Position numbers and translations under genes: made by a program. A DNA stretch of 64,000 nt, taken from the IMG/VR virus record IMGVR_UViG_3300007276_000038, positions 1-64,000 of that record; one strand, written 5' to 3'. The notes under the pieces are model-generated. The model was given only the letters and a program-made list of their open reading frames with translations, was not told the origin of the DNA and searched no databases. The stretch's first letter is position 1. Every line of letters starts with the position of its first letter. Origin of the DNA: a virus. Shown here piece after piece: positions 2,851 through 64,000 of this stretch.

Positions 2851-4839
2851 ATGAAGAAGAATGTATATCTAGCCCAAGTAAACTATTCGCAGGTGTTTAA
2901 AGGGACCATCAATTATTGGCTTCCTTACAGTATAGGTTGTTTGGCTGCATACGCTGAGTCACAAGAACATATCATGAACGAGTACGAAATCAAGGAATTG
3001 TTCTTTAAGCGAGAATATCCCTCAGATATTATTGATCGTCTTGAGGACCCAGCAGTCTTTGGTTTCTCTATGTACGTATGGAACTCACAATACCAAATCA
3101 AAATTGCACAACTAGTTAAAGAAAGATGGCCCGAATGCCTTATTGTGTTTGGCGGGCCTAACTCAACTAACGATCAGTGTAATCTAGATTACTGTGATGT
3201 AGTTGTTCGCAACGAAGGTGAAGCAGCATTTTGCGAAATATTAGAACGTCTAAGCGATGGCCGTGAGATTCCTCCCTTGGTAGTAGCAGAGCGCCTTAAA
3301 GACCTTGACATCCTTCCTAGTCCATTCACCGAAGGAACGTTTGAACCTATTGTAAAAGCTAACCCTGAAGTAGAGTGGTTGGTTTCGATAGAAACTAATC
3401 GAGGCTGTCCTTATTCATGTACATTTTGCGATTGGGGTAGTGCAGTAGCAACTAAGGTACGCAAGTTCTCTATGAAGAAAGTAACTGAAGAAATACGCTG
3501 GCTTGCAAATAATGACGTTGCTTATATTTTTCCAGCTGATGCTAATTTTGGTATATTTAAAGATCGGGACTTATACATAGCTAAACTTCTCCGAGAAGCT
3601 GGTGATTTGCCACAAAGTAAATTCCAAGCTATTAACCTTCAGTACCTTAAAAATAACACAGAAACCGCGATGATCATCGAAAGCATACTAGGCCCAACCT
3701 TCGGTAGAGGCGTTACAATGAGCAGACAAAGCCAACATGCCGATACACTTGAGGCAATTAAAAGAAAAAATATATCTGAGGAAAAATTTGAAAAAGCAGT
3801 AGCCTTTAGCGAAGATTATGATGTTCTAACATACAGTGAGCTTATTATTCCGCTACCGTTAGAGACAAAGGATTCCTTTAGAGAGGGCCTCACTAATATG
3901 CTCGAAGCAAAACAACATTCGTCAATTGAAGTTTGGCCTGCATTAATATTGCCTAACTCAGAGATGGGCAGCAAAGAATACATAGAGAAGTACGAATTAA
4001 AAACAGTGATCGTGTCTGACTACGGTAAACTTAACGGAGACACAATAGGTCAGAACGATCACTTAACAGTTAATTTTATAGACGCGGATACTGCTGAACA
4101 AACTGCGCTTGTTGTTGCGACTAGCACCATGACTACTGAAGAAGTATTAGATTCATATATATACAGTTGGATGGTTATAAGTATGCATAACCGAGGCTTT
4201 TCTCAAATCGTATCAAGATATCTAAATTCTAAACATGGTGTTCCGTATCGTGCATACTATGATAGACTGTATGAAGTCATGAAAACCTATCCTAGTACAC
4301 GGAACATGATGGATTTGATCAACGAAGCACAAATGTTTTACCTGGAAAACGGTCGCTATCCTCTAGAAGATCCTCGTTTTGAAGAAATACTAAATACCGC
4401 ATCCATGCACTTCTTCTCAACCTTGGGTCGATTAAAATGTACCGAAATAAAAGAGGAACTATTTGATATAGGAATAAGTGTAGCTTTAGAATTTGAGGAG
4501 TTACCTGATGATATAGTAGAATTACAACGAAAAATGATTTTCGATAAAGAGCATACTTACCCTATAACAATTGAGTCAGGTTATAATATATTCACAGAAA
4601 CCGACGAAGAAACACAGTACATCATAGGAACAAGGGCAACTAATGAGGCTCAAGAGTGGCTTAACCGCAAGGTAGGCTCAAAGAACATGATTACTACCAC
4701 CGGGGCCACCAATAGCCAAGAAAGGCATGGTGCATCGCTACTAGCAACTGATCGCGTAGCTACTGCAATAGAAAATGCGGTGTCTGTATTCGGTGAGTAT
4801 AAACTTGTTGAAAATCAAGAACTTACAAAAGATTCCTAA
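2851..4839 (+). CDS. Cobalamin-binding-domain radical SAM enzyme (class B-like)
   Basis: ETNRGCPYSCTFCDWG (CxxxCxxC), N-terminal B12-binding-like region (GFSMYVWN...VFGGP...EGE), and DANFG. Paralog of 20914..22836. Confidence 0.88.
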   Translation: MKKNVYLAQVNYSQVFKGTINYWLPYSIGCLAAYAESQEHIMNEYEIKELFFKREYPSDIIDRLEDPAVFGFSMYVWNSQYQIKIAQLVKERWPECLIVFGGPNSTNDQCNLDYCDVVVRNEGEAAFCEILERLSDGREIPPLVVAERLKDLDILPSPFTEGTFEPIVKANPEVEWLVSIETNRGCPYSCTFCDWGSAVATKVRKFSMKKVTEEIRWLANNDVAYIFPADANFGIFKDRDLYIAKLLREAGDLPQSKFQAINLQYLKNNTETAMIIESILGPTFGRGVTMSRQSQHADTLEAIKRKNISEEKFEKAVAFSEDYDVLTYSELIIPLPLETKDSFREGLTNMLEAKQHSSIEVWPALILPNSEMGSKEYIEKYELKTVIVSDYGKLNGDTIGQNDHLTVNFIDADTAEQTALVVATSTMTTEEVLDSYIYSWMVISMHNRGFSQIVSRYLNSKHGVPYRAYYDRLYEVMKTYPSTRNMMDLINEAQMFYLENGRYPLEDPRFEEILNTASMHFFSTLGRLKCTEIKEELFDIGISVALEFEELPDDIVELQRKMIFDKEHTYPITIESGYNIFTETDEETQYIIGTRATNEAQEWLNRKVGSKNMITTTGATNSQERHGASLLATDRVATAIENAVSVFGEYKLVENQELTKDS

Positions 4840-16359: not shown

Positions 16360-16988
16360 TTCAGATAGTCCTTAAATACTTCCTGGTGTCTTAGGTCTGG
16401 GTACGAATGACTACCACCAGTGTCTAGATTTTTATCCGGCAATTCTTTAAGTTTTTCTAATCCCTCAAATGCTGTTTCAGGAGTAATATACATATGGTAC
16501 CCAATAGCGCCCAGGATATCGTTATCGTACTTAACATCACAGTGTCTACCATCGTAAATCATTACGCGCAACCAGTCTACAAAATCTTTATCGTCTGTTA
16601 ATATGGCGCCTGCTCGTCCTAGTTTAAGAGTCTTGCGATGATGAAAACTTACACAATAATAACTTCCAGGGGCATACATATTCCGAGTAAACCGAGTTGC
16701 GCTATCTACTATATCTGTATCACCTATGTAGTAAGCGCCTGACCATATTTCGTCACTAAAGTTAATATAATTCCCGGCATGTATACACTGCATAGGTACA
16801 CTAGCATAAGTGTGGGCTGGTAACGTAATACACTCGTGCTCTACTTTAAGATACTTCATGCACAAAAATAACGCATTCGAGCAACTATCAACACATACTG
16901 CGTATTTAGAGCCACCATATTCAGCTAACTTATTTTCGAATAGTGTAACTGCATCCCATGGATCTTTAAAAGATTTTAATAATTTCAT
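16356..16988 (-). CDS. DegT/DnrJ/EryC1/StrS-family PLP aminotransferase, short form
   Basis: AVCVDSCSNAL, TYASV, DSA and SFHHRKTLKLGRAGAI (PLP lysine region); only 210 aa. Confidence 0.85.
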   Translation of the reverse strand: MKLLKSFKDPWDAVTLFENKLAEYGGSKYAVCVDSCSNALFLCMKYLKVEHECITLPAHTYASVPMQCIHAGNYINFSDEIWSGAYYIGDTDIVDSATRFTRNMYAPGSYYCVSFHHRKTLKLGRAGAILTDDKDFVDWLRVMIYDGRHCDVKYDNDILGAIGYHMYITPETAFEGLEKLKELPDKNLDTGGSHSYPDLRHQEVFKDYLK

Positions 16989-16995
16989 GACTCAC

Positions 16996-17739
16996 CTATT
17001 TTTGTGTTACTATGTCGTACGGTTCTTGGTTGTCTTCGTCGTACCAATACAAGCTACGGTGCGGCCTATCATCTTCTTTATACACAGCATCGCTTACATA
17101 AAAGAATAACCTAAATGTTTTCCGGCTCATCCCAGTTGGACAGTTTAATGGTTCTGGATAACCATGAAAGCCTCGCTTGTGGTAGCGCCAAATAACTGCT
17201 CTATTAAAAAGCGGCGCTACGCTTTGTATAGTCTGCTTGTTATCAAAATCCCTAAACTCTAAGTGGCCGCCGTACTCTTCTTTCCAGTCAGAATTTAAGT
17301 AAACAATCATGCTTAACATACGGTGTACTTTAATCTGATCATTCCAATTAAAGTCAGTATGTATACCTAGCTTGTCGCCGCGACAGCTCTTGCTATATCC
17401 AGCACCTATTAAATATGGGTCAGGGATTAAATCTTTAATGCCAGTGATATTACTTAGCCACTTCATTCCTTGTTGACTATGTATCTGGTTAACAAGTTCT
17501 TGAGCTAATGGTGCTTCAGTCATGTCAGCACATTCTTGCATGTATCCACCTTTGCGTGTAAATTCTGACCAATATTTTTCTGGTATTGTATCTGCTTCTT
17601 GTTCTAGAGCAAGTGCGGTATTGTCAGGCAAAAAATTATCCAATGTTATCATCGGGTAGGGTGGCGTGCCTACAAAACGATCATTGAGCTTGATTGTGTC
17701 ATTAAACGTATGTGTGATGTGTCGTAATATAGTACTCAT
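16996..17739 (-). CDS. 2OG-Fe(II) oxygenase (prolyl-hydroxylase-like)
   Basis: HxD (IHTD), YLNSDW..GGHL, distal His (GFHG) and Arg (SRKT). Confidence 0.88.
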   Translation of the reverse strand: MSTILRHITHTFNDTIKLNDRFVGTPPYPMITLDNFLPDNTALALEQEADTIPEKYWSEFTRKGGYMQECADMTEAPLAQELVNQIHSQQGMKWLSNITGIKDLIPDPYLIGAGYSKSCRGDKLGIHTDFNWNDQIKVHRMLSMIVYLNSDWKEEYGGHLEFRDFDNKQTIQSVAPLFNRAVIWRYHKRGFHGYPEPLNCPTGMSRKTFRLFFYVSDAVYKEDDRPHRSLYWYDEDNQEPYDIVTQK

Positions 17740-45932: not shown

Positions 45933-48900
45933 TTATTGTACGTCATGTAAGAACCTCATAATGTTATCTACGCTAGTAAAATCAATATTGCCAGCGTCAG
46001 CTAGACTCAATGAAGTTCCACTTACTAAGGTTGCAGCATCCCATCTCCACGTGTTAGGCTGACCGTTATAAGTATACGTTGTTATTATTAAATTGCTGCC
46101 CGGTGGATCAAACACCTCTACGTAAGCAGGATCAAACGTTGCTGGTGAATATGTGATGCCTATTAGACTATTTGCTTCGTCTACTGTAGCTATCAACACA
46201 TACACATTTACATTAGAATTAGCCGGAGTATTTTCTGTAACTTGTATCGCAGCGCCTTCAACTAATCCTATGTTAGCATAAGTGTTGCTGGTCGCGCCAA
46301 CACTTATATTAGCTGTCTGTAAGTCCGCAGATATTAGTGTACCAAAGGTGTTCTCTACTACTACGTTTGCTTCATCCCATCTATCAAGCTGTGTATAGTT
46401 TGCTGCATCTTCGTCGGCTTCGTTAATCAATACTCTTAGTCCAGTTACTGGATCAAGTATAAGATCACCGTTACCATCACGTAGATACGTAGCCGAAGTA
46501 CCCGGGGTTAAGTCAATTGACTCGTACCATTCATCAACATTACCGAAGTATACTGATCCAGTAGTTAGCCATACATTTTGTCTTGGGTTTAGATTATTGA
46601 ATAACTGGCCAGGGGAAGCAGAGTACACTTCAGAACCATACACATGATCTTGTATAGTTGTACCATCTTGTCCTCTTCTAAGCTGCGACAACACCTTACC
46701 AACCTTACTTGAGTATCCTATCTTCTCCCCATTGATCCATACAAATCCAGGCTCTTCTCTGTTAGCGTCTTCTAATGTATCCAACTCATCTCTAAGCACA
46801 ATAGTCTCGCTGTGTGCAAACAGTTTAGACTTAAATACTAAACTGGTGCCTGTTGTTGCTTCACTAGTAAAGTCTACGGTAACAACATCAGTTGAATCGT
46901 TTATACTTGTTACCTCACCGATCAACTCATCAGTGTCGGCTCTATGTACCTGCATAAACATTACTATGCCCTTGCTTTCCTGTAGCTGTACTTCGTTTGT
47001 GCCTACAGTAACGTTAGCATCAAGTTCGACGGGAACTGTATCTGTAACTAACTCACCTGTGGATAACTTAGTTATGCGAAGGTAATCTGACTCGCCGAAC
47101 AAAGTATGGTGCATTCTGTACTTAACCTCTCTTGATGCTGGAGGTAGTGACGCTAATATATTTCCGTTACTATCAAACGCATCAGTCGATGTAGTCACTG
47201 TCATAATAAAGTTTTCTAGTGGTGTAAGCTGCACTAGCTCTTCAGGATGCTCTGGACCGTATATACCTCGCTGGAACGTTCCTGCTGAGAATCCCGAATA
47301 TACTTCGTCATTGACTTGTAATGTAGAGTTACCAGTGAACGTTCCTTCGTATGAGTCATAAGTTTGTATTGTATTCAATCCATCACTTTCTAATGGATCA
47401 ACATCGTAACTATATGCCAGACTTGCGTTAGACGTGTGGTCTAGCTCATTATCAATAAACTGGTCAAAGATGCCGCCATCAAGTGAAGAACCTCTATATG
47501 CTCCGCCAACTTTAGATTGCAGTAAGTCAAGTGTTCCTGACAGACCGTTATTAGAAACAATGTCTTCCATTGCGCTTACGTTACCCACAATATCTATATT
47601 TTCAAAAGCTGTTGCATCATCGAAGTATCTATTAACTTCTAAGTTAAAGCAATTTATGACAACAGGATCGTAAACAAATATTCTGTCAATTGCGCGTAGT
47701 CCGTCAGTGTGGAATCGTATCTCTGAATTAGCAACTAAAACGTTGCTTAATGCAGTTGTAATTGTTACGGTGCTGTTAGCTTCGTTAATTGATTCTACTA
47801 AGCCTGATATTACATCGACGTTGTCAAGAACAACATCAACTTCTTGCCCGATGTAAATACCCTCTACATCATCAATAGCAATAATACTATCGTCGACTTC
47901 TGCATTTGCTGTTATTGTTCTAAACTTGCTTTCGTATGTAATTGCGCGAGGATCAATTTGTGTTAGATACGCTATATTTTCTGCGATGCTTCTATTCAGC
48001 GAAGTAGTACTCTTGTCTACGTTGCGTCTAGTTAGTTCCCAGTTCGTTCTATCAAAAACCATCACTGTATTAGTCTTGCGAATTATATCAGTATTGCCAC
48101 TAGTATATGCAGTGAAATAATCAATATATCTTGGGTCAGTAGACAATATTGCTTGATCTGCTTCCGACTGCTCGTTTAGTATGCGTGTAGTATTTGCGTC
48201 TGCATCTACGTACGGTGGCTTGTCTGCATCACTTAGACTATTTTGACCTACTGTATCCAACTCTGCTGATTTACCATCTTTGTACTCACGTATCTTAGAA
48301 TGATACGGTTTCACATCATTCATGTAGTCTAGTACGCGCTGGAAGTTCTCTGGCTTAAATCCGCTGTACTGTTTTAGATCATTTTCTTGCTTTTCGATAT
48401 ACAAGTAACTTGTCTTGAATGCCCACGATAACTGACCTTGTTCGGTGTATGCGTATTTAACAAGCTCAAAGAATAATTCATTCCAGAACGTTGTGCCTAC
48501 AAATACATTGTCGCGTAGTGTTTCTAGCAATGATCTAACTTCTAATGCTAGTGTGGGATTTTGTTCATCAGTAAATACGCTATCGTTAAATTTAACTGTA
48601 TCGTTCGATATGCTGATTAATTCAAAGTTAGCAAGTGATGCTCTGTACATCCATAACTGTGAGGAGTTGTTCTGATCGCTTTGCACAAGAACTACAGTTT
48701 CATCAGGTATATCAACTAGCCTATCTAGTTCGCTTACGTTTGATACTTTGTAAACTGGCTTGTAGCTTTCGTCGAAACGTATTTTTTCATTAGTAGCTGT
48801 ATCAACACGATCAACTTCATACCAGCTAACTGTTTCTATGTACGTGCGGTCTGAAGGTAAGTTAACGTCCCATGCCGGGAATTGACTATTAAGTTTTAGT

Positions 48901-51900
48901 CCAGCTAACATTTCATTAATGACACTCACCATCACTCGTCGTGCGCCTGATATGTTCTCAAACATTGTTTGTCGAGGACGGAAATTTGTTCCGTAACGTT
49001 CAACATAACTTAATGTAGGATCAGGCACACTTTGGAAGATTGCGTTTTCGCCAGCTAAACTATCAATTAACTTCTCTGACAATATGCTAGGAACAGTACT
49101 ACTGCTATCGTTCTCACGCACTAATTTCCACGCTGTGTGACTTAGCCCATCAGGATTTAAATTTCTGCTAAAGTTAATTTGCAGATGATTTTCTTCGTTT
49201 TCTAATAACTCGCCTACATTGCTAAGTATAAAGCTCTCATCACTTGCAAAGCTAATAGTGTGCAATCCATAACCAACTGGATTTGCTATGTATCGTGCAA
49301 CTGTCTGCGTATCTAACTTACGGCCTAAGTCTCGCTTAATACGATCATCAATAATATTGCGATTCTGTACCCAATAATAATAATACATCGTGTATTGGCC
49401 TGTTACAGGATCACGTCGACGTTCTGTTATGAATTTGTCAGGCCAGCGTGGCGATCCGTTGCCTGTCCATTTACTAGGCAATGCCTTAGACTCTACCCAC
49501 TCGCAAATAGTAATAGAACTTCCAGGGAATGTTCTGCCCCAGTTATTTGCACGATTTAAATTAGTTCCTTGCTCGTACCACATATACCGTACTGTGCTAG
49601 TATCCCACCAAACTTTACCTATATTATTCTGACCAAAACCAGTTCTTGCATTATTGTATGCTACAGGATCATTGTCAGTTATAAAATGTATTTCATTATC
49701 AATAAATCCTGGTAGTACGCCTTTGAACGGATCCCATAGATTTAGTGTAGCGGTTCGTGCGCCTGTATCATTGTCGTACAGTAACGCACTGCGAACGTAA
49801 TCTACATCAACTAGCGGTTCTTGCTGTCTAATTATTTCGCCGTCCTCTAGATACGCCCAGCCGTTACCTTCATAGTCATCCACCCATGCCTTCGGTAAGT
49901 TAACTGTATTTGCTACGTTGCCAGGCTCAACTTCTCTGTTGTCTAGCGGTAACTGATTCGTTTCATTGAATCGTTTGCTTTCAAAGATATTAACAGTAGT
50001 TAACTCTTTTTTAGCTGTAGTGTTTAACGTAAGTGCATCGCCAAAGATATTTGTAATTTCGTACTTATATAGTTCTCTTATTGGATTGATAACTGCATCG
50101 CCAAAGATACTGTTATTGTCTGTTTCTAAGTCAAACAAGCATAGTAGACTTAATAATCTACTTGGAGGAATACTTGCTAATGGTCTTCCTGTAATCTCAG
50201 CTATACGCTGTTCGTCTAACAAGCCAAGAGACTCGTTAGTTTCATACAAGCGATCTATTTCTTCTGCTGCTGTTGCTGCCCCGCCAGTAGACGAAGCATC
50301 ATTAGCAATACCTTCTAGACATAATATACCTAAGTCGTAATCGCCAATCGGTAATCCTAATTTTTCAAGGAAGCCTGGTGTTGACGAATCTATATTGACG
50401 CCCGGGAATGTAGTGTTTAACTCGATTATACTTAAATCTTCGACTGGTGTTACATCAAACGACAGATCCTCTGGTGCATAGCCTACACCAACTAAGGCGT
50501 CATTAAGTGCAGCAACTAGTGCTTCGGGTGCGTTAACTTGAGTAACAACATCTGGTATTCCTAGTGCTTCTTTAGCTGTGCCTTTCTCAGAACAATCTGG
50601 AACTTCTTGCGCTGTTATAAACAGTCTTGCACCTGAACCACCTGATGTTATGTTCGGCTCTGCATACTGACCGTATTCAGCACTACTTGAGTCTTGATTA
50701 AAGTTAAACGTTTTTCTTAATAACTTACCTTCGTCAAATGCTTGCTGTGCAGATCCTCTGAACGCAGCGTCGATCAATACGTAAGTATTAGGATCATACG
50801 CGCCCGGAGAACCAGTGTACGGTATAAAGTTTTTACCGTTCCAATAGTATTCAGGTGTTAGCTTCCAATCAGGATGCTTAAACTGTTGGCCTGTACCAGC
50901 TTCTTTAATAAACAATGCTACTGTAACAATTAGGTTAAGCCAAATAATTTTTTCAGCGCCTACTAGTGTGTCTGCTCCAAACTCTCGCGCTTTACGCTGA
51001 ACTTCAGCAATAATTGCGTCTTGCTCTGGAGTAGTAGGGTTTTCAGCTTTGTACGTAGCGACTAGCTGATCAAACAACTCAAAGTTAAAGTCAATAAACG
51101 GTTCTAGCCCATACTCAGGGTGTCTAGGTGTGCCGTACTGTGCATTATCACGTGCAGGATCTGCAACACCTAGCATCTTATCGCGCTGGTCTCTTGTAAT
51201 TATTCCTGCTTCTGGATTAATTAACCCTACGCCTTGTGCTGCGTAATCATACTCAAGAGGTATACCGTATGTTAAATCACTCGGGAATACTTTGTATAGA
51301 CCTCTGTCTATAACACGTAAGCTAGTAATAGTACCGTCTTCGTCCACATCAGTCACAATAAACTTAGCAATACGCAACGGTCCTGCCATTGAGGTGTATC
51401 CATCTGCAAACAAATCATCTGACGTTAAGTCACCAGGGTCGCGGTTAGTTAAATCAACTTCTGGATTAAGTGCGATTAACGAACTCACTTTTGCTGGGAT
51501 CTTTCTCAGTGTAGGATCTATAGTATCAACAAGAGATGCTCTAGTAGAAGTTATGCTTGTGTAGCTTTCAAACCATGGTCGTCTAGCAGTAACAGTTATA
51601 CCGTTGCCAAACAGCAAGTCAACACTTTCTTGTGTTGAGAATACAGCATCTTCTACATAAAACTTGTTAGCGAATACAGTTGGGTCACCTTCCGATGAAT
51701 CTGGAATCCAAAACAAACCAGTTTGTGGTGTTCCGCCATCTGGAGTAAATGCAATTTCAACATAGCTATTAGGACGAATCCAGCCGCTAGCTGCGGTAGC
51801 TGTGTTAACTTGTATCTCTGCTCTTGATGCTGTAGAAACATCTTGGGTTGATCGATCAACCCAAGCAATACTTGTGTTTGCTACTGCTACACTATCATCT

Positions 51901-54900
51901 ACGCCAAATGTTACTGGTGCCGTAGCTCTCAAGAATCTGTTTTCTGCAACTCTTGAACCTGTTCTGTTACCATTAACGTCTAGTTCTTCTCTAACATACT
52001 CTACACGTATAGTTTCTCCGCCTTGCACCGTGACCTGGTCAGGCCATGCTGAATTTATAACTACAGGAGTTATAGTTTGTGGTGAGCGATCAAAGATTTC
52101 AATCTTAGGTGGACGACTCGCATCGTAGCCAGCGCCTTGATTCAATACTTCTATTGTTGCTATGCCACCTAACTCATCCAATGACGTTACTTGTGCAGCG
52201 GCACCTATGCCAGGTGCGTTACCATCGCTATTAATAATAACTTGTAAGTTAGCAGGGTTAGTATAACCTGCGCCTGCGCTATCAATACAAATAACAGTTA
52301 ATGGTCCTTTTTGGTTATTTACTGGCGTACCGCCAATTAAACGTAGTCTATCACCTATCCTATATCCTGAGCCGCCTGTTGTAAACGACGAGGTGTTAGT
52401 TTGTGAATACACAGGAGCGATTGACGGGAATGTCATTGTTACACTTCTATCTTCTGGTAGTAACGCTTGCACTGGTTGTCCATCTTCGATTGCAATATAG
52501 CGAGGTAATGTAAGTGTGCCACCTTGATCTAAGATTCCGTTTGTGCCACCACCGCTGGCTGCTGAGAACGAACCGTCTACTGGACCAAACACGTACTGCT
52601 CTGTAATAGTTTCAGTTTCATTTTTCGCTTGCTCGAAGCCACGGTTAATGTGGAAGTCACCTACTTGCTTATATCTTCCTCCAGCACAGCCGTTGCCTGC
52701 TGTCCAAGCTCTACCGTCACAACTTGAAAGAACAAGTTTTTCGCCTGCTTGTGAATTTCTAATTACAGCACTTAAACCAAAGTTGCCGCAGTTAATTTGT
52801 GTCTTGACATCTTGGAAACTAGTTCCTCGTATAATAACTTTACGACCGTTTAAGAACAGCTCGCTGTTTTCTTGTATGCCGAATAAGTCATCTTGGTTTA
52901 ACGTTATACTAGGAGTAGGCCGTTTAACTGCTGCTACTGCTGTTGGGCCTGCTGCTACTGATCCGTCTATGTTAAAGTTCAACGGTGTAATTTCTATTAC
53001 TGGTTGATTAACATAACGTATAGACGAATTATCAAATCGCGTAAACTGCGACGGCTCAAATGCTTGTCCTGTAACTGTTTCAATCGGATCAACAGTTTGC
53101 GGAATCTCAGTACCTGGCTGGTCGAAAGCTGGCCCGTCAATAACATACGTTGTTCCTGCTGTTGTTCCACGGTTACCTGTAACGTTATTAATACGTTGCC
53201 CGTTAACATTATATGTTGAGCCAATACGTGTTGGGTTATAACGCAATGTAGTATTAAGCGTACTTGCATCACCTAAGTTACCTGCCCAAGGCTCACGTAC
53301 TACTTGGTTAGATCTAATTAATGTTCTCGGTACGCGGCTAACTGTAGTAAGTCTCTTGCGTAGCGGAAGAACTTTTCCACCTGATACTCTCTGACTAGTT
53401 GCACTTACAAATCGCCCTGGTTCGATCTGGGCACTGTATCCGTAACTCTCTGGATTAACAATTTTACGGCTTGGCTTCTTGAACGATGTTGGGAAAAAGT
53501 TATACCCTGTCATGTTTTGCTGACCGTAACCAGAGAAGTTACCAAAAACAAAACCACCTAAGTTAATTCGTTCTCTTATTGCCGCCAAATCTATTTCGGT
53601 ACCGTCTGCTGTAACGTATATATCCTGCGATGTGTCAGGTGCTGGTGCTGGTGCAGGTGCAGGTGCAGGTGCTGGTGCAGGTGCTGGTGCTGGATCGTCA
53701 AACAAGCCCGCGGCTGCTGCCGCTATAACTGCTGCTAAAGCGCCTGGCGCAATTTGGAAGTCAGGCGCAGCCGCGCCGTCAGTGCCTGGGGCTGGGTTAG
53801 ATACAGGAGTATCTTCACCTCCGTTCTGAGCAGCACAAGCATCTTCATAGCCTCGAGGACATTCTCCGTATACTTGCTGATAACACCTCAACTGGGTATC
53901 GCTAAATCCACCTGTGGATAACAGACCACCTTGTCCAGCAGCTACACAATCTATAAATGCTTGACGGCGTGGATCTTCTTCCCTGGGTTCTGACGGGGTA
54001 TCATTTGTTGTATCGTTAACTGTATCTGCGCCTCCGTCATTGCTGTCGCTACCGGTTGTTGGCGCTGGGTTAGATCCTTCAACTACACACGTTCTTCCTG
54101 TGAATGTAAAGTAATTAGTTACAAAAGTAGGCACATCAAATTGGTAGCCGCCAAACAAGTTAGTGTTAAGTGTAGTAGACGTAGTTTCGCCTGTCGCCAC
54201 TTTATACTTAAGATCAAAGAAGCCCCTGTCAGCACCCTCTGTTGTGTTACTTGCTATAATTCGAACAAAGTAAAACTTACCTTCTTCTAGATAAACGTTT
54301 GCGCCTGTTTCTGTAATATCATTTGCGTTAGACGTTGCTAGTGCAGCATTATCTCTATGGTATCTCTTATCAGCAAGGTATGCAGCTTTTGAACTAGGGT
54401 ATCCTCCGTCTGGATATCCGTCTTCTTTAAAGTATTCTTCTGCTGCAAGATCATCTACACCGATACGATAGTCAACGCCATTAACTCTCTTATCAAAAGA
54501 ACTAGATATCCAAACCCACAATGCATCATTAGCGCGTCCAACTAACTGATAGTTTCCAGTCACTGGCGCTCTAAAATAACCTTTCAATTCTACAGTAGAA
54601 CATCTGCGAGGGAAGTCCTCAAAAAAGTCTAGGGTTCTAACACGAGTATTTAAATCGTTAACAACTGATGGCCAGTCTGCACCACGGTTTCTTACTCTGC
54701 TGTTAGGCGTAATGTTTATAAGATTAGTTTTGTTCGCATCCAATCCTTGATAACCAGTTACTGGTAACTTGTTGTATGGGAAATAAATATTATGGACATA
54801 GCCCCTTCCTATCTTTTCCCGTTCGCCGTAACCTATCCATCCGTTTGCATTATTATCAGTTGCAAACCAGCGTCGAAGCGTGGCGCCATCAGCGTATCCA

Positions 54901-57900
54901 ACACTCGGACTGTTGCGCTCACCAGTAGAACAATCTGCTTCTTCACCCGAATCAATCACTAAGCGTATAGCATAATTAATGTATAACAGCCAATCTTGTG
55001 CAGCTGAGCCAGCACCTTCTTTAACCATGATAACTACGTATTCACCTACTCCGCAGTTTACTTCACGTTGAATAAATCCTACACCTTTAATACCTAGGTA
55101 GTCAGCTTCGTTATAATAAGAAATCCAGTTGTCGCCTAATACGCTAATCTTAGGTCCTGGTGTGTCTGGAGTACCAGTAGTGTCTATCGTGAACTGTGTT
55201 TCTGCTAGGTTAGTATTTTCTACACCTAGTGCTGTTGATACGTCTTCTACTTCTTTACCTAAACCTAATGTTCTGTCAATATCATCAACACCGTACTGTC
55301 CTATTTGTGTTCCGTTGTTAGTTAAGAAATCACCGTTTGACTTTGTGTCAATTACTAGTCTTGCTTCTTCAAACCATCCTTGCTCATCAAACGTATCACT
55401 TTCGGGATTGTAGGGAACATCGCTTTGGAATACAGCTATACCTATGCCGTTGTCTGCTGCCAGTGAATTAAAGAATATACGGAAAGGCTCAATTCCGGCT
55501 ACCTGTGTTTGATAGTAATAGCCGCCAGTAGTGCCTGGTATAGGATTAGTTGCTGATCTTCCGTTTATAACTGATGATGGGAAAGTTAAGTCAACGGTTG
55601 TACAACTACCATCTGCATTAGTGTTTTTAGCAGAGGTTGTTGGTATTGGGGTACACGGTCCTGGTAATCCTTCAAGTGCAGCACCGTTAATAATTGGGCC
55701 AATTTGTGTTACTGGAACAGTATCAACCCAATCATTGTTGTTAACTAGTTCGCCAGTTGATGTTACTACTGCGCCCGGCGCTACTTGATTTCCCACAGAC
55801 AATTGAGCAGTTTCGTCTGGTGCTCCTGTGCTGCCGCCTGCCAACGATGATGGTGCAAATAAGTCCCATATATTGCTGTCAGTTGTTGTTTGGAAATCTA
55901 CATTATCTGCTACACTGTTGTTCCAATCTTTTCCGCCCCATCCTGTATCTGGTATAATACGTCTTGTAACAGCATTAGGTGGTAGCTCTGTCAAGCGAAT
56001 GTACTTCATTCGAGTTACAGTTCCTAAGTAGTCAGCATACACTGGCTGCGGAGTATTATTAGCATCTACATTATTATAGTTAAAACGCACTAACTGATTA
56101 GTGTAAGTAAACGGTTCTGTCCAGAAACACGCAACAAATATTTCTTCAGGGCGTATGTTCTCATTAGACACATCTTCGTCTGTTAGCTCGACGTATGTAG
56201 GTGGCGATGTAACAACACTATCAATAAGTGCATCATCTGTTTCTTCAAGTACGTTGCCATCTGCATCAAGGAAAGTACTAGTAGAAAAATTACCCTGCGG
56301 TGGGTACACACTAAACTTCTTATTGTATACGAATCTAGGTATAGGAGCGTTATACTCGTTTAAGAATGACGGGTACTCTTGTCCCAAATGATTGTCATTG
56401 GCTGTGTAATAACCCGAGCCGTATCCAAGAACGGAAGGATTACCGTTAACACCTGGAAGCGGTCCAGGACCGCTTGCTGTTGGTGCCCACTGACCTGGTG
56501 TTAATCCTGGTGTCCACATGAAGAAACTATTGTATCCAGGTTTAGATACTTCTATCATTGCTCTGCGACCCGAAGTATCTGACCCTATCTCTAAGCTAGG
56601 CAATCCTTCAAAGTTTCCTATCGGACTAGACCCGTTGCCGCTTGCTAATGCAAATGGTTCTGGCACCAACTGCTTACCTAGGTAGTTTGCTGGTTCAACT
56701 GTTGAAAGTTCTAATGCAGTCTGTGCAAAGTTCTTTATAATGTCGTCATTGTTTATAACTCTATCATTGCCGTCTAAGATTAAACCAATGTTGTTTCTGT
56801 AGTAATAATCAGTTGCTAGATATCCTAAGAAATCACTATACGCATTTACTGTCTGATAAAAGTCATGTCGTATTGCCGGAGGGGAAACCCTGTCCAGTAG
56901 TGAATAGTAAATATCTAAATCATCATTTTGCACTGCTTGGTAAACTTCAAATACCATATCACTCGAAGGCTTTAATCTAAATGCAGGTACTGTTGCTGGA
57001 TCACCTGTTGTAGTAAATGTTTTTTCTAGCAGCATGTTGTAAGTAGATTGCTTTCTCCCTGGCAAGAATACAGTGTTTGATCCTGTGCCTGGAATGTTAA
57101 GTAATACAAGTGCATTAGCTTCCTGTGTGTTAGATAGCAAATCAGCATCAACGTGCCCTTCAGGTGTTTTAACTAAATCTGAATTTGTTTCTTGTTGGTC
57201 ACTTAAATTAATAAGCACAGAATCCACTGCTCTGTACCGTTGTATTGTAGGATCCCATCTATACTCAATTAACGATTCTTGATCTGTGTACACTAGTCCT
57301 TTGTAAGGTCCTCTAATATCAGGTCCTTTGTTAAACGTAGTATCTAATTCTTTTTCTTTACCGTTACTAATTTCAAGTGTCCCAGTAACCGGAATCTTAT
57401 TATCTGACAGAAGATTAATTATTTCTTCTTCTTTTATATATGGCCCATAGTTACTGATCGCCGGTATAGTAGTTGGCATTCCCAACGGGTCATTTTGTAT
57501 CGGTGCTTGTGGATCATTTAGCATCCCAAATCGTAGGCCAAAAGAATCTTGCTTCGTAAATAACTTACGCAGATTCATCTGACGGTTAAGACTAGTAGTC
57601 ATACCGTCTAAGTTATTGTAGCTATCTATAGCAATATTACGGCCATTCATTCGCGCTTTGTTGTGATCTAGCGTAGTAATAATTGGATAGCGATCGCTAT
57701 TGCGTGGCTCTTGTCGCATTATAGTAATTTTAGTACTAACGTTAGCATCGCTTGATAATGCGTTTGCTGCAACGTATGCTACATTATCAACTATGCTTAT
57801 AAGTGATGCTGGGACAATTTCTGAATTACTATTATAAAATGCTACTGCATCGCTTAGTCTATAGCTATCAGCCATCACTATTGTATTTGTTGCATTAGCT

Positions 57901-60900
57901 GCCGTAACATTACCCTCGTCGAATAAATTACTAACGTTTAAGTAAGCTGACTTTTCCTCATAGAAGTAATAGTCAATACCTGACTTAGACTGTACGCCGT
58001 CTATTGAAATAGTATTCGGTGTTATTGAGCTAATATTATATACTTTGTTGTAGTATAAAGGAACAGTAAAGTGTACCGCAATGCGTTTGCCGTTGTCTGC
58101 GTATGCTTGTGTAATACCGTGAGGACCAACAGTTTCAATTGTTATTCCGTCTCCGATAATGTTGCCTTGATTAAAATCAAAAGTGTACGGGCTGTTAATA
58201 ACAAACGTATTCGCTGTCACTTGTTGTGCTTGGAAATCACCGCCGAACACATCAGTGTTTATACGAACAACCTCGCCTTCTATTACGTTGTGATCTGATG
58301 CAGTAACAATTGTTTTGTTTAGATGCAGAGCTGATACAGCGTCAGTTACCACTGTATTCGGTCTTGATATCTCAAACGATTCAGTTGTTACGTTACTTGC
58401 AATATAAAAATCTGCATTAGCCGGAGTATAATCAACATAGCTTACTACTGTATAAGAAGCGCCAAAGATATTAGATATTGTGTTGCTATCAAATTCTGGA
58501 TCGCTGATTATGATTTTACCGTTTGCTTCGTCGATGGCATCGACATAATAACTTCTATTCGTTAACGAATAAACTAAGTTAATTGTGTTAACTTCATTCG
58601 GACTCAGTGCATTAATATTTGCTGCTGCGTTAGCTAGCAGTAGTGGATCTGGTGATCCATTAAACAATATCATTACATTGCCTACACCCTGGTCATTGAT
58701 TAGGGTAGTAAGTTCTGTTAGTCCATTGTCTAGTATAGCTGTAGCTGTAGCCGCGTTGCCAGTAGTAGTATTTTCGATTGTTACTGTTGGCGCAGTAAGA
58801 TAACCAGCACCTTTAGCAGTTACTTCGATAGCACCAATAACACCGTCAAGCACAGCTTCGGCAGTTGCGCTAGATCCGTCGCCTATAATCTCTAGTGCTG
58901 GTGCTTCAAGTAGCCCACCCGGGCAAAATGCAACATCGACTATCACGTTACCGACAATTTTATCAACTGAAGCAAATGCTTGTGAGTTTGGATTCGGCGC
59001 ACTTACTCCTGGAGCATCTATTGTAATTACAATATTGCTATCATCAGATCGGAAACCCGACCCTTGATCTGTTATTGTAATTTTGTAAATTTCACCGGTA
59101 TCAGCGTCTATATCTCCTGCATTTACTATTGCTGTGGCGCCTGATCCTGAACCACCGGTGATAGTAACACTCGGTGGACTAGAATCGTCATAACCTAATC
59201 CGCCGAAATCCATCTTCAGCGATAATATTCCGCCTAGGATGTGCGGATGAATATCTGAACCACCTGCGGCCGCGATATCAGTTGAAAGAACCCCGTTGAT
59301 TAATAACGATGCAGTAGTCCAGTCACTTGTACTTGTTGTGGTGACTGAATCTATACATGCAACTATAATTGCTTCTGCTTCAGCGTCAAACTCAGCGCCT
59401 GCTGGGCTGCCAGTTAATGTTATATTAGGCGTAGATGTATAACCGTCGCCAGCAGTATCAATTGTGATAGAAGAAACAAACGTTGTATGTAACTCCATGT
59501 TATTCGGGCCATCAGTAGATACACTAGCATCATATGTGCTACTTGTTCCTATTCGGTCAACTAACTGTATAGCGTCACCTTCACCCACCGAACCTATTTG
59601 TCCAGACACTGTAACTATATCACTTAGATATTCTTCCGACGGAGTCAACAATAATCCTGACAACGGTGTTCCTGCGGTTGGTGCAGTGCTTTCGATATTA
59701 ACAATGCGACTAGGGCCAATCTTAGCAATCCTAGCTTCGATCATTCTAGGTGCTTCAACTTCAGCTAATGTCAATTGTTGCGAATCAACTATGTCTTCAT
59801 TTCGCCAAATGACAACATTATCACTTATGTTTGCATTTCTTAAAGCTAAGTAATAATCTAAATAACGTCCTGTACCTTCTTCACCAATCTGATTTGTGTC
59901 AAGGAAGTTAAACAAACTAACATCACTATATAACGACACTGTACCGGATAGATCTTTGTATAAAAATGTTTGCGAAGCATCAATGTCAGTAAGTTCATAA
60001 ACGTTCCAGTCATCGCGTTCTGCTCTTGCTATGTGTATTAAATCACCTTCGCTTGGCTTAATTACAATGCTATCATCATACAAGTCTGCTAAACTAGCTA
60101 TATCAAATGCTTGGAAATTAATATTTCCGCTATCAACATATCCTGCATTTCTGACAGTAGGGTAACGTTGATCAGTAACACCAGTATGATCGACGCTATC
60201 TAGTGTTGGCCACAATGTGCTTTCTCTAAAGCCGGTTGGCTTTTTAAGAAAACGCTCAGAGTCATCGATGTCAATTAATAATACGCCATCGTTGTCTGCA
60301 TCTGGGGTAATAACAAAATTGCGTCTTGACGTTAACCTAGCTGCAATTCCTTCGTCACTGGTTACCTTGATTACAATTGTAGCACCAGGAATGTCATCTT
60401 GGAGCCCTGAATCAAACTCCACTGTGGCACGTTCGATAACTTTTATTTGTGTATCGTTTGTAATTGCGTAATAAACTTCTCTATCTGTTTCATCGTATAT
60501 AACGTCTAGTGGTGGATTATACTGTACAGTTAACGCTTCAGGCGGTAATAGACTCAAGTCAGTAAATTGTATACTATTTTGTGTTAACGTATACACTTGC
60601 CCGGAAACGTTGCTCCATGTGTTGCCCACTGTTTCAGCATTTCCATCAGTATCATACCAGTTGTAAGTTGTAGTTGTATTTTTAATAAGTACGCCGTTGA
60701 TATACACGTCAACAAACCTATAGTCGCCGTTTGCATCAATTGCATCTACGCCTGATATGTTATTTGCTTTTAAGTTAGTGTTAGCAAAAGTAAACACAGG
60801 ATTAGTGTTAGCAATATCATACGTTACTTCTGCATTAGATTCGTTTATATTAACTTGTGTTCTAGGGTAAGTTATAGCGTCAGGTAAATCAGAGATAGCT

Positions 60901-63900
60901 GTTACTGCGTAATCAGATATTAGCCCATCTTGTTCTATGACATTACCTGAGAAGTAAGTGTATTCATCTGTTAACGTACCATCTACCCTAACTGTAATTT
61001 CTGATACATTCGCTGCATCGTTAATTAATATTTGTTCTTCTGTTGAGAACACAGGATATCGTTGCTGCGGCTGATAGTTTCCTGCTACTAATAATACGTT
61101 ACTGCCATCAACTACATCATAATCTGATCCACTCAGTATAAGTGTGTATCCTATAGCATTAGCATTACCGTTAATATTATGTGTTGCTATCATTGTAGCA
61201 TTTAAGTTGATGTTGGCGTTATTTACTGCGCTTTCTATTTGCTCTGGTGTTACGTTAGAATTAGCAGCTGGACCTACATCAAAAGTAATGTTTGTATTAC
61301 TAATGTTATCGGTTAGTTCAAATACTACGTTTGCATTGCCTAGTACAATATAATTACTTTCTCGAGCTGCGATAGCCGGAGCCAGTATTGTTACACTATC
61401 TGTTAGCAACACATTAGCCACAACAACCCTTGCGCCTACTTCGCTAGCATAACCGCTACCCGAATTAGTTACTGTGATTGCTTGTATTTTATTGTCTGGA
61501 CCTAATGTAGCAATAGCCGTTGCTTGCTCACCGCCAGGTTGCGGTGGTGCAATTTCGATTTCCGGGACCTCTATGTAAGTATATCGAGCATCTAGTAAAT
61601 CAATACGCTCTACTATGTTAGTTGTATCTTCTGGAAACGCTAGTGTTACAAGCTGAGGATCTTGTTGTAGGTCTTCTTTATCAAGTTTTAGTTCGATGCT
61701 TTGGAAATTCTCAGTATCACCGAAATCGCCAACTTTTAATGCCCATTCGTCAAATACACTTATGTTTCCTTCGGCAGCACTTGAGCTACGAGCAATTCGT
61801 GTTAAGCTAGAATTTGTGCCTTTGCTTTGTATTAGTCCTCGACTAAATTCTACTTGCTGGTCATTAAGAATATCTAATTCTCTAAAGTATTCTTTATCTT
61901 CAAAGCCAAACAAGTTGCGAGCCGCTGTGTAAAGCTGCTTCTCTACTGGGATAAATCCAAATTCATGATATCGCCCTAGGCTTTCAGCTAAGTTATCTGG
62001 ATTAGCTAACAGTTCATCGCCGTCGATAATGTAGCCTTCGCTTACAAATCTACCCGTCCAATTCTTTGTGCGCTTACCTTTAAGTTTAATTCTAGTCTGA
62101 CGTTGATTTAAAACTGGATCAAACAATGTATCGTTAAAGTCTGTAATATTATCAAACGCAATAACGTGTTCTAATTCTTTAACAAAAAGCATAACGCCAT
62201 AAATTTGCACAGCTGGGTCAATAGGAACAATTTCAATAAAGTTATCTTCGCGAGTAATTTCACATTGACCTGGATCAATGACTCCGCCTTCTTGATCAAC
62301 TAAAGCAAACTGCTCTCTATCGCTACGATTAATTTTTGCTATGAAACCTTGTGGTGCTATAAACTTAGTCTTTGGTGCTAGCGGCGATAACTGTAATATG
62401 TTACCTGACTCCCATTTGCCTGTTGTCCAGAACAAGAACTGCTTTGCAGCGTATGCCCAGTTTCTTACATCAGCTATTGCCGAATCGTATACGCCAAAGA
62501 CAAAACCTAGACTTTCGTGCTAGCGTCCCAACTCAATAAGGAAATTGTAAACATCTTGACTATTATCAAATCGTGTTTCGTAATCAACGCGCTTGATAAT
62601 GCCTGTTGTGTCTAAGTATCGTGTTCCTTGTGCAGCACCAATTTGCGGAAGTGCAGGAAGCCTTGTCCATATTGCTGCATCAAACGATGCACCTGAACTA
62701 ATATTTAACGGAGCTTCGTAGAATGCACCATTGCGTTCAACTATTGTGCCTCTATTATATGTTGTATTAGGTTCCCATACTCTGTAAGGACTAGCTGTAC
62801 CGCCCACCCTAACACTTTCTCGTTGTCCTGAAATTTTACTTTCTAGTACATTAAAGTACGGCATAGTTGAATCATAACCGCGAACAACATACTGCCCTTC
62901 TTCTAGTTCTATCACAACACCCGAATAAAAGTTACGTGACTTATACGGAGAGCTATGTAAAGATACATCAATATTTTCTTGAGGTATGATTAAGCTAGAT
63001 GCATTACCCGTCGAACTATATTGATCTGTTCTTGCTACTAATGTATCCTTGTCAATGTATCCGCTCATGCGGTGTGCTAGCTTAACATTTAGTGTTCTCA
63101 TTTGCTCAGCAAACTCTGTTACTGTGTCGAGTCCTTGGAACTCAAGCCAGCTATGAATGAATTGACTGTAGCCTATGTTTGTTATAAAGTTGCTATTCTC
63201 GTCTAGGTCACCGTGTACAGCAAACTGATCTGGATCGCTAAACAACCAACGCTGCCCCGTATCAATATTAAACAGTCTGCGCTTGTCAATTTGCGGACGG
63301 TATAACTTAGTTGGATCACTAAAGATTGTAGCAAAGCGTCCGGGCTTTGCAAGCAGTAGTGCTTCTGCTACTGCGAATGGGTAGCTTTCGCTGTAAGTCC
63401 ATGCTTGTTCAACCGGAGCAAAGTCTCCAAATTTCCATGTGTCGCTTATACTTCCAGTTACAGATTGAGATATACTTGGCGTACTAGTAAGAACTGGCGT
63501 TGCATCTTCGTTAATGTATCCGTTGTTTACTACATTGTCAGTTTCACCAAATTGTACAAGTAACTTAGCGCGGACACCTGTTCCATCCGGGTCAGTTACT
63601 ATTGCTTCTGCGCTAGTGTAATTACGTCCGGTGTTTGTTATAATAACATTAGCAATTTCACCCAATTCATTAATTTCTAGATCAGCAGTTGCACCTGTGC
63701 CAGTACCAGTGATAGTAACTATGCTATTAGCTGAGTATAAACCACCCTGATCTAAAATAACTATACTTGTTACTTGATTAACTGCACTAGGTATGCTATA
63801 ATAATTATGAGTATATTCGTTATCGGGGCCTGTTCCACCACCAATCTGATATGGGAACATAGGTTCGCCATCATCGGTGATAGTTGATACATAAAAGTTT

Positions 63901-64000
63901 ATCGGCTCGCCGTTTGAGTCAGGTGTGATACCGAAACGCATATTGTATTCGTTTGCTTGCCCGGGTAACATAGCGACATTAGCATCGTATTCGTAGTCTT
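45933..64000 (-). CDS. Giant virion structural protein (baseplate/tail-associated, >6000 codons), one in-frame TAG at 62520-62522, 5' end outside the window
   Basis: Track ORFs 62520..63971 and 45933..62435 are in the same frame, joined by 28 sense codons after the TAG, and the frame is open to 64000. Contains GxGY...P.(V/I) beta repeats, a PA14-like domain, a YHYH-like segment and a (PA)9 linker. Confidence 0.8.
53637..53693 (-). repeat. (Pro-Ala)9-Pro coding hexanucleotide repeat
   Basis: CCAGCA/CCTGCA units seen directly. Confidence 0.92.
54200..54880 (-). other. PA14-like carbohydrate-binding domain within the giant protein (approximate limits)
   Basis: VELKGYFRAPVTGNYQLVGRANDALWVWI...VYLEEGKFYFVRI matches the PA14 pattern. 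Confidence 0.65.

Follow-up and report, generated by a model that had tools for sequence, protein, structure and literature searches.

The window analyzed here, a stretch of 64,000 nucleotides corresponding to bases 1 to 64000 of a linear viral contig of 95,373 bp from IMG/VR (IMGVR_UViG_3300007276_000038, hereafter G000), carries on its minus strand part of a giant virion gene whose reading frame is interrupted by one amber codon. The TAG at 62522..62520 terminates open reading frame (ORF) 62520..63971(-), the product of which ends in ...NFLIELGR-TAG, and 28 in-frame open codons (HESLGF...AAKQF; HESLGFVFGVYDSAIADVRNWAYAAKQF) then reach a TTG at 62435 that heads a 5,500-amino-acid (aa) ORF ending with the TAA at 45935..45933. 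Between the TAG and this TAA, 5,528 sense codons follow one another in the same frame, and so long an open frame right after a stop rules out chance. As judged from the ORFs of the whole contig, the true upstream start lies outside the window at ATG 68024, which has an AAGGA Shine-Dalgarno sequence ahead of it and is located four codons past the TAA that closes a baseplate wedge gene of 1,399 aa. Read through the stop, the frame runs from ATG 68024 to the TAA over 7,363 codons (22.1 kb), with the TAG as codon 1835 and as the sole in-frame stop. This gene makes up 23% of the contig and contains 336 Tyr codons. CheckV puts the completeness of the contig at ~27%, implying a genome of ~350 kb.

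The original prediction had placed the TAG and the ORF that it ends at these same coordinates and had noted the 28 open codons leading into the 5,500-aa ORF, and both observations are confirmed. It had further proposed a single protein of more than 6,000 aa; the single gene stood and the size of about 6,000 codons did not, as the frame counts 7,363 codons and the upstream ORF starts beyond the window.

Homology and synteny across the amber codon

With X placed at the stop, the read-through protein is colinear over residues 1 to 7362 with a 7,219-aa ORF that is uninterrupted in the closest relative (G001, the IMG/VR contig behind locus L004), and the first high-scoring segment pair, which covers residues 1 to 3004 at 58% identity, passes through position 1835. 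The two parts also match one and the same PHROG family, phrog_10938, described as "virion structural protein" and 3,324 profile positions long. The N-terminal part is matched from profile position 17 (E = 2e-195), then the C-terminal part at positions 1299 to 1697 and 1802 to 2132 (E = 3e-61 and 2e-73), so that the profile order is kept from one part to the other. A tblastn search with the 800 aa centered on the stop matched 93 cultured jumbo phages (among them PA5oct-like phages, Atu_ph07, Phosso, and the Rak2-like phages CBB and BF), with a single alignment piece across the site in 39 of the 40 rows listed. PA5oct is aligned in one piece over ~700 aa spanning the site (33% identity, E = 1e-113); its homologue is gp355 (YP_010678859), a 3,857-aa protein encoded by one coding sequence whose record bears an electrospray ionization tandem mass spectrometry (ESI-MS/MS) flag. 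The Atu_ph07 homologue, gp180 (YP_009611845; 4,449 aa), is likewise one coding sequence. Moreover, the order of a baseplate wedge gene followed by the giant gene is common to PA5oct, Atu_ph07, five IMG/VR relatives, and the present contig, in which the 1,399-aa upstream gene matches phrog_10646, baseplate wedge subunit (E = 0), and tail-fiber and gp10-like genes lie downstream of the giant gene.

Start signals were sought after the TAG. No purine-rich Shine-Dalgarno sequence precedes TTG 62435 (the sequence ahead of it being GCAAAGCAGTTC), GTG 62210, or ATG 62192, a signal that most real starts of the contig possess, and the TTG lies within a KQFLFWTTGKWE block conserved in the family. This TTG is thus an ORF-finder artefact, not a real start. 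Its want of a Shine-Dalgarno sequence had been pointed out in the original prediction, which had also relied on GxGY-type repeats shared by the two parts; these do occur in both, yet with 1 motif in the N-terminal part against 10 in the C-terminal part they are weak evidence.

Altogether, it is strongly supported by these comparisons that the two ORFs make up a single gene, carried by an uncultured marine jumbo myovirus and with a predicted product of ~7,363 aa, because of the colinear homology to uninterrupted giant proteins, the single PHROG family over both halves, and the synteny, and also because there is no independent start and the stop falls inside a conserved helix, as described below. 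The product is predicted to be a baseplate-associated virion protein.

Predicted structure and domains around the site

The 600 residues centered on the TAG site were modeled with AlphaFold2 (model m0775d8ccde93) from an alignment of 40 sequences. The mean predicted local distance difference test (pLDDT) score is 73, and it reaches 79 to 95 over residues 160 to 420 (81 to 95 apart from 79 at residues 411 to 420). The TAG site is model residue 300, within a helix of residues 287 to 304, and the blocks covering residues 271 to 310 score 89 to 95. Because the TAG would fall inside this confidently predicted helix of a conserved domain, a product ending there would stop mid-helix and mid-domain.

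Ahead of this helix, model residues 209 to 256 form a module of the carbohydrate-binding CBM5/12 type, which matches Pfam PF02839 with an E value of 5e-4, below the family cut-off, and the PDB chitin-binding domain 2rts in a profile search (E = 0.023). Its structural matches reach Z scores of 5 to 6.4 with root mean square deviations of 1.3 to 2.4 Å over 40 to 47 residues. PDB sequence and profile searches returned nothing beyond the chitin-binding domain, and Foldseek with the 600-aa junction model returned the small chitin-binding module only; the wide VIA structure search with the same model stayed at Z ≤6.4, with CBM5/12 plus generic Ig-like or pilin sandwiches. Over the whole giant protein, a YHYH domain (PF14240) at residues 1195 to 1370, a CBM5/12-like match at ~1750 to 1771, and a GLEYA/PA14 match at ~4476 to 4507 were found, as was a phrog_460-like module of ~75 aa in the N and C halves alike; NCBIfam gave no match for the giant protein. 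Database relatives span ~3,400 to 7,900 aa in length. From its domain matches, the giant protein looks like a carbohydrate-binding mosaic located at the periphery of the baseplate. By analogy of gene order, its position after gp6 suggests a counterpart of T4 gp7, the baseplate wedge initiator; no likeness to T4 gp7 was seen among the PDB, Foldseek, and VIA matches, the structure searches covering the one 600-aa region that was folded.

A conserved aromatic residue in place of the stop

All 93 related IMG/VR loci have a sense codon at the site, most often Tyr (53 loci; TAT in 42 and TAC in 11), then Phe (12), Lys (11), His (6), Trp (4), and others (7). The same picture was obtained with giant database proteins: the best 120 of 318 (3,400 to 7,900 aa) were compared, and all 120 span the site, with Y in 86, F in 13, W in 11, H in 7, A in 2, and K in 1. 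Shorter database forms (1,008 to 3,210 aa) gave 10 matches, one of them the present ORF, and the site is crossed by each of the 7 that extend into the region; these are contig-truncated fragments. Thus, no stop or gene boundary was found at the site in 93 IMG/VR loci, 120 giant proteins, or 7 shorter proteins, and the comparison set of more than 200 homologues also took in the 93 cultured jumbo phages. In the two closest relatives, the residues read LGR-Y-QE (CGT TAC CAA) and LGR-Y-QQ (AGA TAT CAA), compared with CGC TAG CAC here, with no insertion or deletion. The TAG therefore replaces, codon for codon, a conserved aromatic residue and is one third-position transversion away from Tyr (TAC/TAT). 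On the plus strand, the base at window position 62520 is C (the complement of the G of TAG), where Tyr codons would give G (TAC) or A (TAT). The original prediction had counted TAC and TAT among the one-step ancestors of the TAG, which agrees with Tyr being the conserved residue; aligned across the junction, the homologues mostly carry it, and none is split there into two genes.

Frameshifting, an intron, an intein, and a ribosomal hop at the TAG were ruled out, since the alignment is codon for codon and free of indels. Pyrrolysine was set aside on reasoning, as a conserved aromatic site and a single TAG would hardly suit its insertion.

The rest of the giant gene was screened for similar lesions. 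Over ~209,000 codons of the 93 relatives, no TAG was found at any site of the giant gene, and no isolated in-frame stop was found besides one pair in locus L012. This locus and L011, which are IMG/VR contigs from sibling samples, are 99.8% identical, with 10 differences in 5,423 bases of the homologous giant gene. Two of these differences are nonsense codons in L012 relative to L011 (GAA to TAA and TTA to TGA, at positions 1156 and 4939), away from the present TAG site. In another locus, L047, the giant-gene frame breaks at about position 3000, exactly where the match begins, and the upstream DNA is stop-rich in that frame; the break may stem from frameshifting, rearrangement, or chimeric assembly.

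As for the junction itself, megablast against 50,697 phage records found no near-identical DNA, and an exact pattern in which the G of TAG was left free had no match in IMG/VR or JGI metagenome contigs, the set searched possibly not including the contig's own or near-identical records. Exact look-up found the truncated protein of 1,834 aa once, as a singleton from one contig, and found no 5,500-aa form begun at the TTG in the protein collection. The features of the locus are collected in Table 1.

Table 1. Features of the interrupted giant gene, in window coordinates
Feature	Position	Strand	Evidence or remark
In-frame amber TAG, codon 1835 of 7,363	62520..62522	-	Codons of relatives compared
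N-terminal part, last 492 of 1,834 codons	62523..64000	-	phrog_10938 match; YHYH and CBM5/12-like domains; ATG 68024 beyond the window
C-terminal part, 5,528 sense codons and TAA, without a start signal of its own	45933..62519	-	phrog_10938; colinear with the 7,219-aa ORF of G001
TTG, first start-type codon after the TAG (codon 29); ORF-finder artefact	62435..62437	-	No Shine-Dalgarno sequence
Predicted alpha-helix holding the TAG site	62508..62561	-	AlphaFold2 model residues 287 to 304; site at residue 300
CBM5/12-type (chitin-binding type 3-like) module, just upstream of the TAG	62652..62795	-	Pfam, PDB profile, and structure matches

A genuine gene split elsewhere in the family

In two relatives (G003 and G004, the IMG/VR contigs behind L009 and L017), the giant gene is present as two genes, whose products measure 5,035 and 5,040 aa for the first and 3,390 and 3,309 aa for the second. 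This split lies near residues 4,700 to 5,040 and is accompanied by an intergenic spacer, a Shine-Dalgarno sequence, and a TATAAATA-like promoter-like motif.

The first of the split genes ends in a poly-Gly linker followed by a complete Hint/intein-like module (CFTG...TADHPF...HNYFVE..CVHN and a tail of 10 to 12 aa). This arrangement was seen at ~16100 to 16930 in L023 and at the equivalent stretch in L027 and L028, with Pfam matches PF01079 and PF14890 on P0042 and P0046. Such a module at the end of a virion protein of 5,000 aa is possibly a C-terminal autoprocessing (BIL-like) domain. The gene of the window and that of its closest relative are fused and lack Hint.

Use of TAG and tRNA genes on the contig

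TAG also ends six further contig ORFs that reach 150 codons or more, including same-strand late-operon genes, and some of these stops are found at typical operon junctions, as in an ORF that ends with TAG at 16996, eight bases ahead of the ATG of the next gene at 16988. No back-up stops lie nearby, and the read-through extensions of these ORFs measure 10 to 67 codons. When TAG is read as sense, the present pair is the only one joined among the large ORFs, and one in-frame TAG is counted in ~31,000 ORF codons of the contig. The original prediction had described the TAG as alone in its frame with other genes here ending in TAG, and had judged genome-wide reassignment unlikely; both statements agree with the single stop in 7,363 codons, the six other ORFs, and the absence of any other joined pair.

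ARAGORN found no tRNA gene on the whole 95,373-bp contig, so that the search for a tRNA with a CUA anticodon, which the same prediction had extended to the rest of the genome, was negative for the ~27% of it that is assembled. Among the fragments of five relatives (116 to 135 kb), an Rfam tRNA search gave a single tRNA-Arg(GCG). As these fragments also yield just this one tRNA, the absence of a suppressor tRNA here is uninformative.

Discussion

Taken together, these results make it likely that the giant gene was interrupted by a sporadic TAY-to-TAG substitution that serves no biological programme. We propose that a single-base third-position transversion, from TAC or TAT to TAG, would be private to this assembly. 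The lesion would be a consensus or sequencing error of the metagenome assembly, or else a very recent and probably deleterious amber allele assembled by chance, and the normal product would be the full-length protein with Tyr at position 1835. This reading is favored because the stop is found in 0 of more than 200 homologues, is not at a domain boundary, and is without a stimulatory structure, and also because no tRNA is present on the 95 kb and a comparable nonsense pair exists in L012. A lone stop in the giant gene is what random lesions or errors are expected to leave, given that the gene occupies 23% of the contig and that 4.2% of all possible single-base changes in it create a stop. Since the 5,528-codon tail is intact, the lesion either is artefactual or arose very recently, unless ribosomes translate through it; with 4.2% of changes creating stops, ~70 substitutions (0.4% divergence) would probably be enough to place another stop in an untranslated tail. 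The original prediction had left read-through and mutation or error side by side; the evidence assembled here favors mutation or error.

Several points weigh against a mere substitution or error. At normal coverage, an erroneous consensus base is rare. Elsewhere the contig shows no sign of poor quality, and the one other apparent gene break that was checked is conserved. It concerns a gp26-like gene outside the window (contig positions 85123 to 86390, minus strand; 12123 to 13390 of L022), which ends in ...VNFFTAS-TAG at a T-rich run, and whose -1 frame continues for 78 codons and is conserved as a separate open frame of ~82 aa in four of five relatives. The -1 extension fits a conserved frameshift or an overlapping ORF, as far as the relatives indicate, rather than an assembly error. 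Since this break is conserved and not an error, it lends no support to the idea of a bad assembly, and general assembly sloppiness was thus rejected as an explanation. Furthermore, the contig is ~27% of the genome, and a tRNA(CUA) could lie on the absent ~70%. Two distantly related jumbo phages carry suppressor tRNAs, namely, XacN1, with two tRNA(CUA) and no identified targets (PMC5852040), and Atu_ph07, with a tRNA(UCA) (PMC6102473). We nevertheless infer an error or a one-off mutation in preference to a suppressed codon.

The best surviving rival, which we regard as unlikely, is a genuine TAG decoded by an amber suppressor tRNA (CUA), the gene for which would lie in the host or on the absent ~70% of the phage genome, with Tyr as a possible inserted residue. 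A TAY-to-TAG change would then be nearly neutral in a standard-code phage with a single "client" codon. Such suppression would account for the 5,528 fully intact codons downstream; however, an error or a mutation of very recent date would leave the tail just as intact. The ~27% completeness of the contig leaves room for the tRNA, and suppressor tRNAs are known in related jumbo lineages (PMC5852040, PMC6102473), while the 95 kb lack any tRNA and five relatives' fragments share the one tRNA-Arg(GCG). Suppression is further opposed by the six ORFs that TAG terminates without nearby back-up stops and by the lack of TAG anywhere in the giant gene of the relatives. The narrower version, in which the TAG is fixed in the phage and decoded by the phage's own amber suppressor tRNA from the rest of the ~350-kb genome, appears a little less likely again. 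The phage would then be a marine jumbo phage that keeps the standard code and has one client amber, in the largest of its virion genes; this might represent a first step to stop-codon recoding of late genes or a switch tying completion of the baseplate to expression of the phage's own tRNA.

Programmed leaky termination is highly improbable. UAG followed by C would be read through at a low rate, so that the 1,834-aa product would be abundant and the full-length one of 7,363 aa rare, at a set ratio. C does follow the stop; UAG-C is a comparatively weak termination context according to fourth-base work in Escherichia coli, and near-cognate tRNAs that read UAG can insert Tyr or Gln. Conservation would be expected of such a signal, whereas none of the more than 200 homologues keeps the stop, and the stop would lie inside a helix of a conserved domain in the model instead of at a domain boundary. 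Nor was a stimulatory RNA structure found downstream, the 161 nucleotides around the stop folding no better than shuffles (z = +0.40). The relatives that make two products are split near residues 4,700 to 5,040, with true intergenic regions and start signals.

We give even less weight to two real genes, with an upstream protein ending at the TAG, re-initiation at TTG 62435 or later, and fragments joined noncovalently. There is an in-frame TTG 28 codons past the stop, and gene fission does occur in the family; it does so at another position, and no homologue is split at the TAG site. Moreover, none of TTG 62435, GTG 62210, and ATG 62192 has a Shine-Dalgarno sequence, the 28 skipped codons and the TTG lie within strongly conserved sequence, and the cut would bisect the modeled helix.

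Genome-wide or late-gene reassignment of TAG (code 15-like), for which the gene at least belongs to the late virion class recoded in crAss-like and Lak phages (10.1101/2021.08.26.457843), can be dismissed with near certainty and is excluded on the 95-kb contig, because TAG as sense joins a single ORF pair, with one in-frame TAG in ~31,000 ORF codons, TAG still terminates six ORFs, among them same-strand late-operon genes, and the contig has no tRNA(CUA).

Coming back to the error or recent mutation that we favor, the practical consequence concerns annotation: the 1,834-aa and 5,500-aa ORFs belong together as one ~7,363-aa gene with an internal stop, and annotating two proteins would distort the length and domain statistics of the family. 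Checking the homologous residue, here Tyr (TAY), goes most of the way to an answer. The locus would be of interest as a minimal case of recoding only if a fixed TAG were accompanied by a tRNA(CUA).

Comparison with known systems

Classical T4 amber mutants of structural genes grow only on suppressor hosts. The present case resembles them in that one base change makes TAG out of a sense codon (here Tyr, TAY) in an essential-looking virion gene, so that the full-length product would need a suppressor tRNA or rare read-through; the T4 mutants, in contrast, were selected in the laboratory, whereas this one comes from a metagenome assembly and is an allele or an assembly error. In read-through of the Qbeta A1 type, the stop is conserved and a complete short product is followed by an extension domain, and the present TAG fits neither feature. 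XacN1 is a standard-code jumbo phage with an orphan tRNA(CUA) (PMC5852040), whereas no suppressor tRNA was found on the 95 kb of the present contig. The recoded crAss-like and Lak phages described by Borges et al. (10.1101/2021.08.26.457843) are alike in having in-frame TAG in late virion genes of large phages; they differ in their many TAGs and their own suppressor tRNA, compared with one TAG here, in a contig where TAG is still a terminator, and not shared with relatives.

The closest likeness is to the phrog_10938 family itself. PA5oct gp355 and Atu_ph07 gp180 are colinear with the present protein and occupy the same position behind a gp6-like wedge gene and ahead of tail-fiber and gp10-like genes, and the family, including the CBB and BF homologues, has a similar mosaic of carbohydrate-binding modules (YHYH, CBM5/12, and GLEYA/PA14). 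Among the phrog_10938-type homologues compared, the present copy is the only one with an in-frame stop at the site. At 7,363 aa, it is about twice as long as its homologues in PA5oct and Atu_ph07 (3,857 to 4,449 aa), and its clade, which is marine and uncultured, has hundreds of members measuring 4,700 to 7,900 aa.

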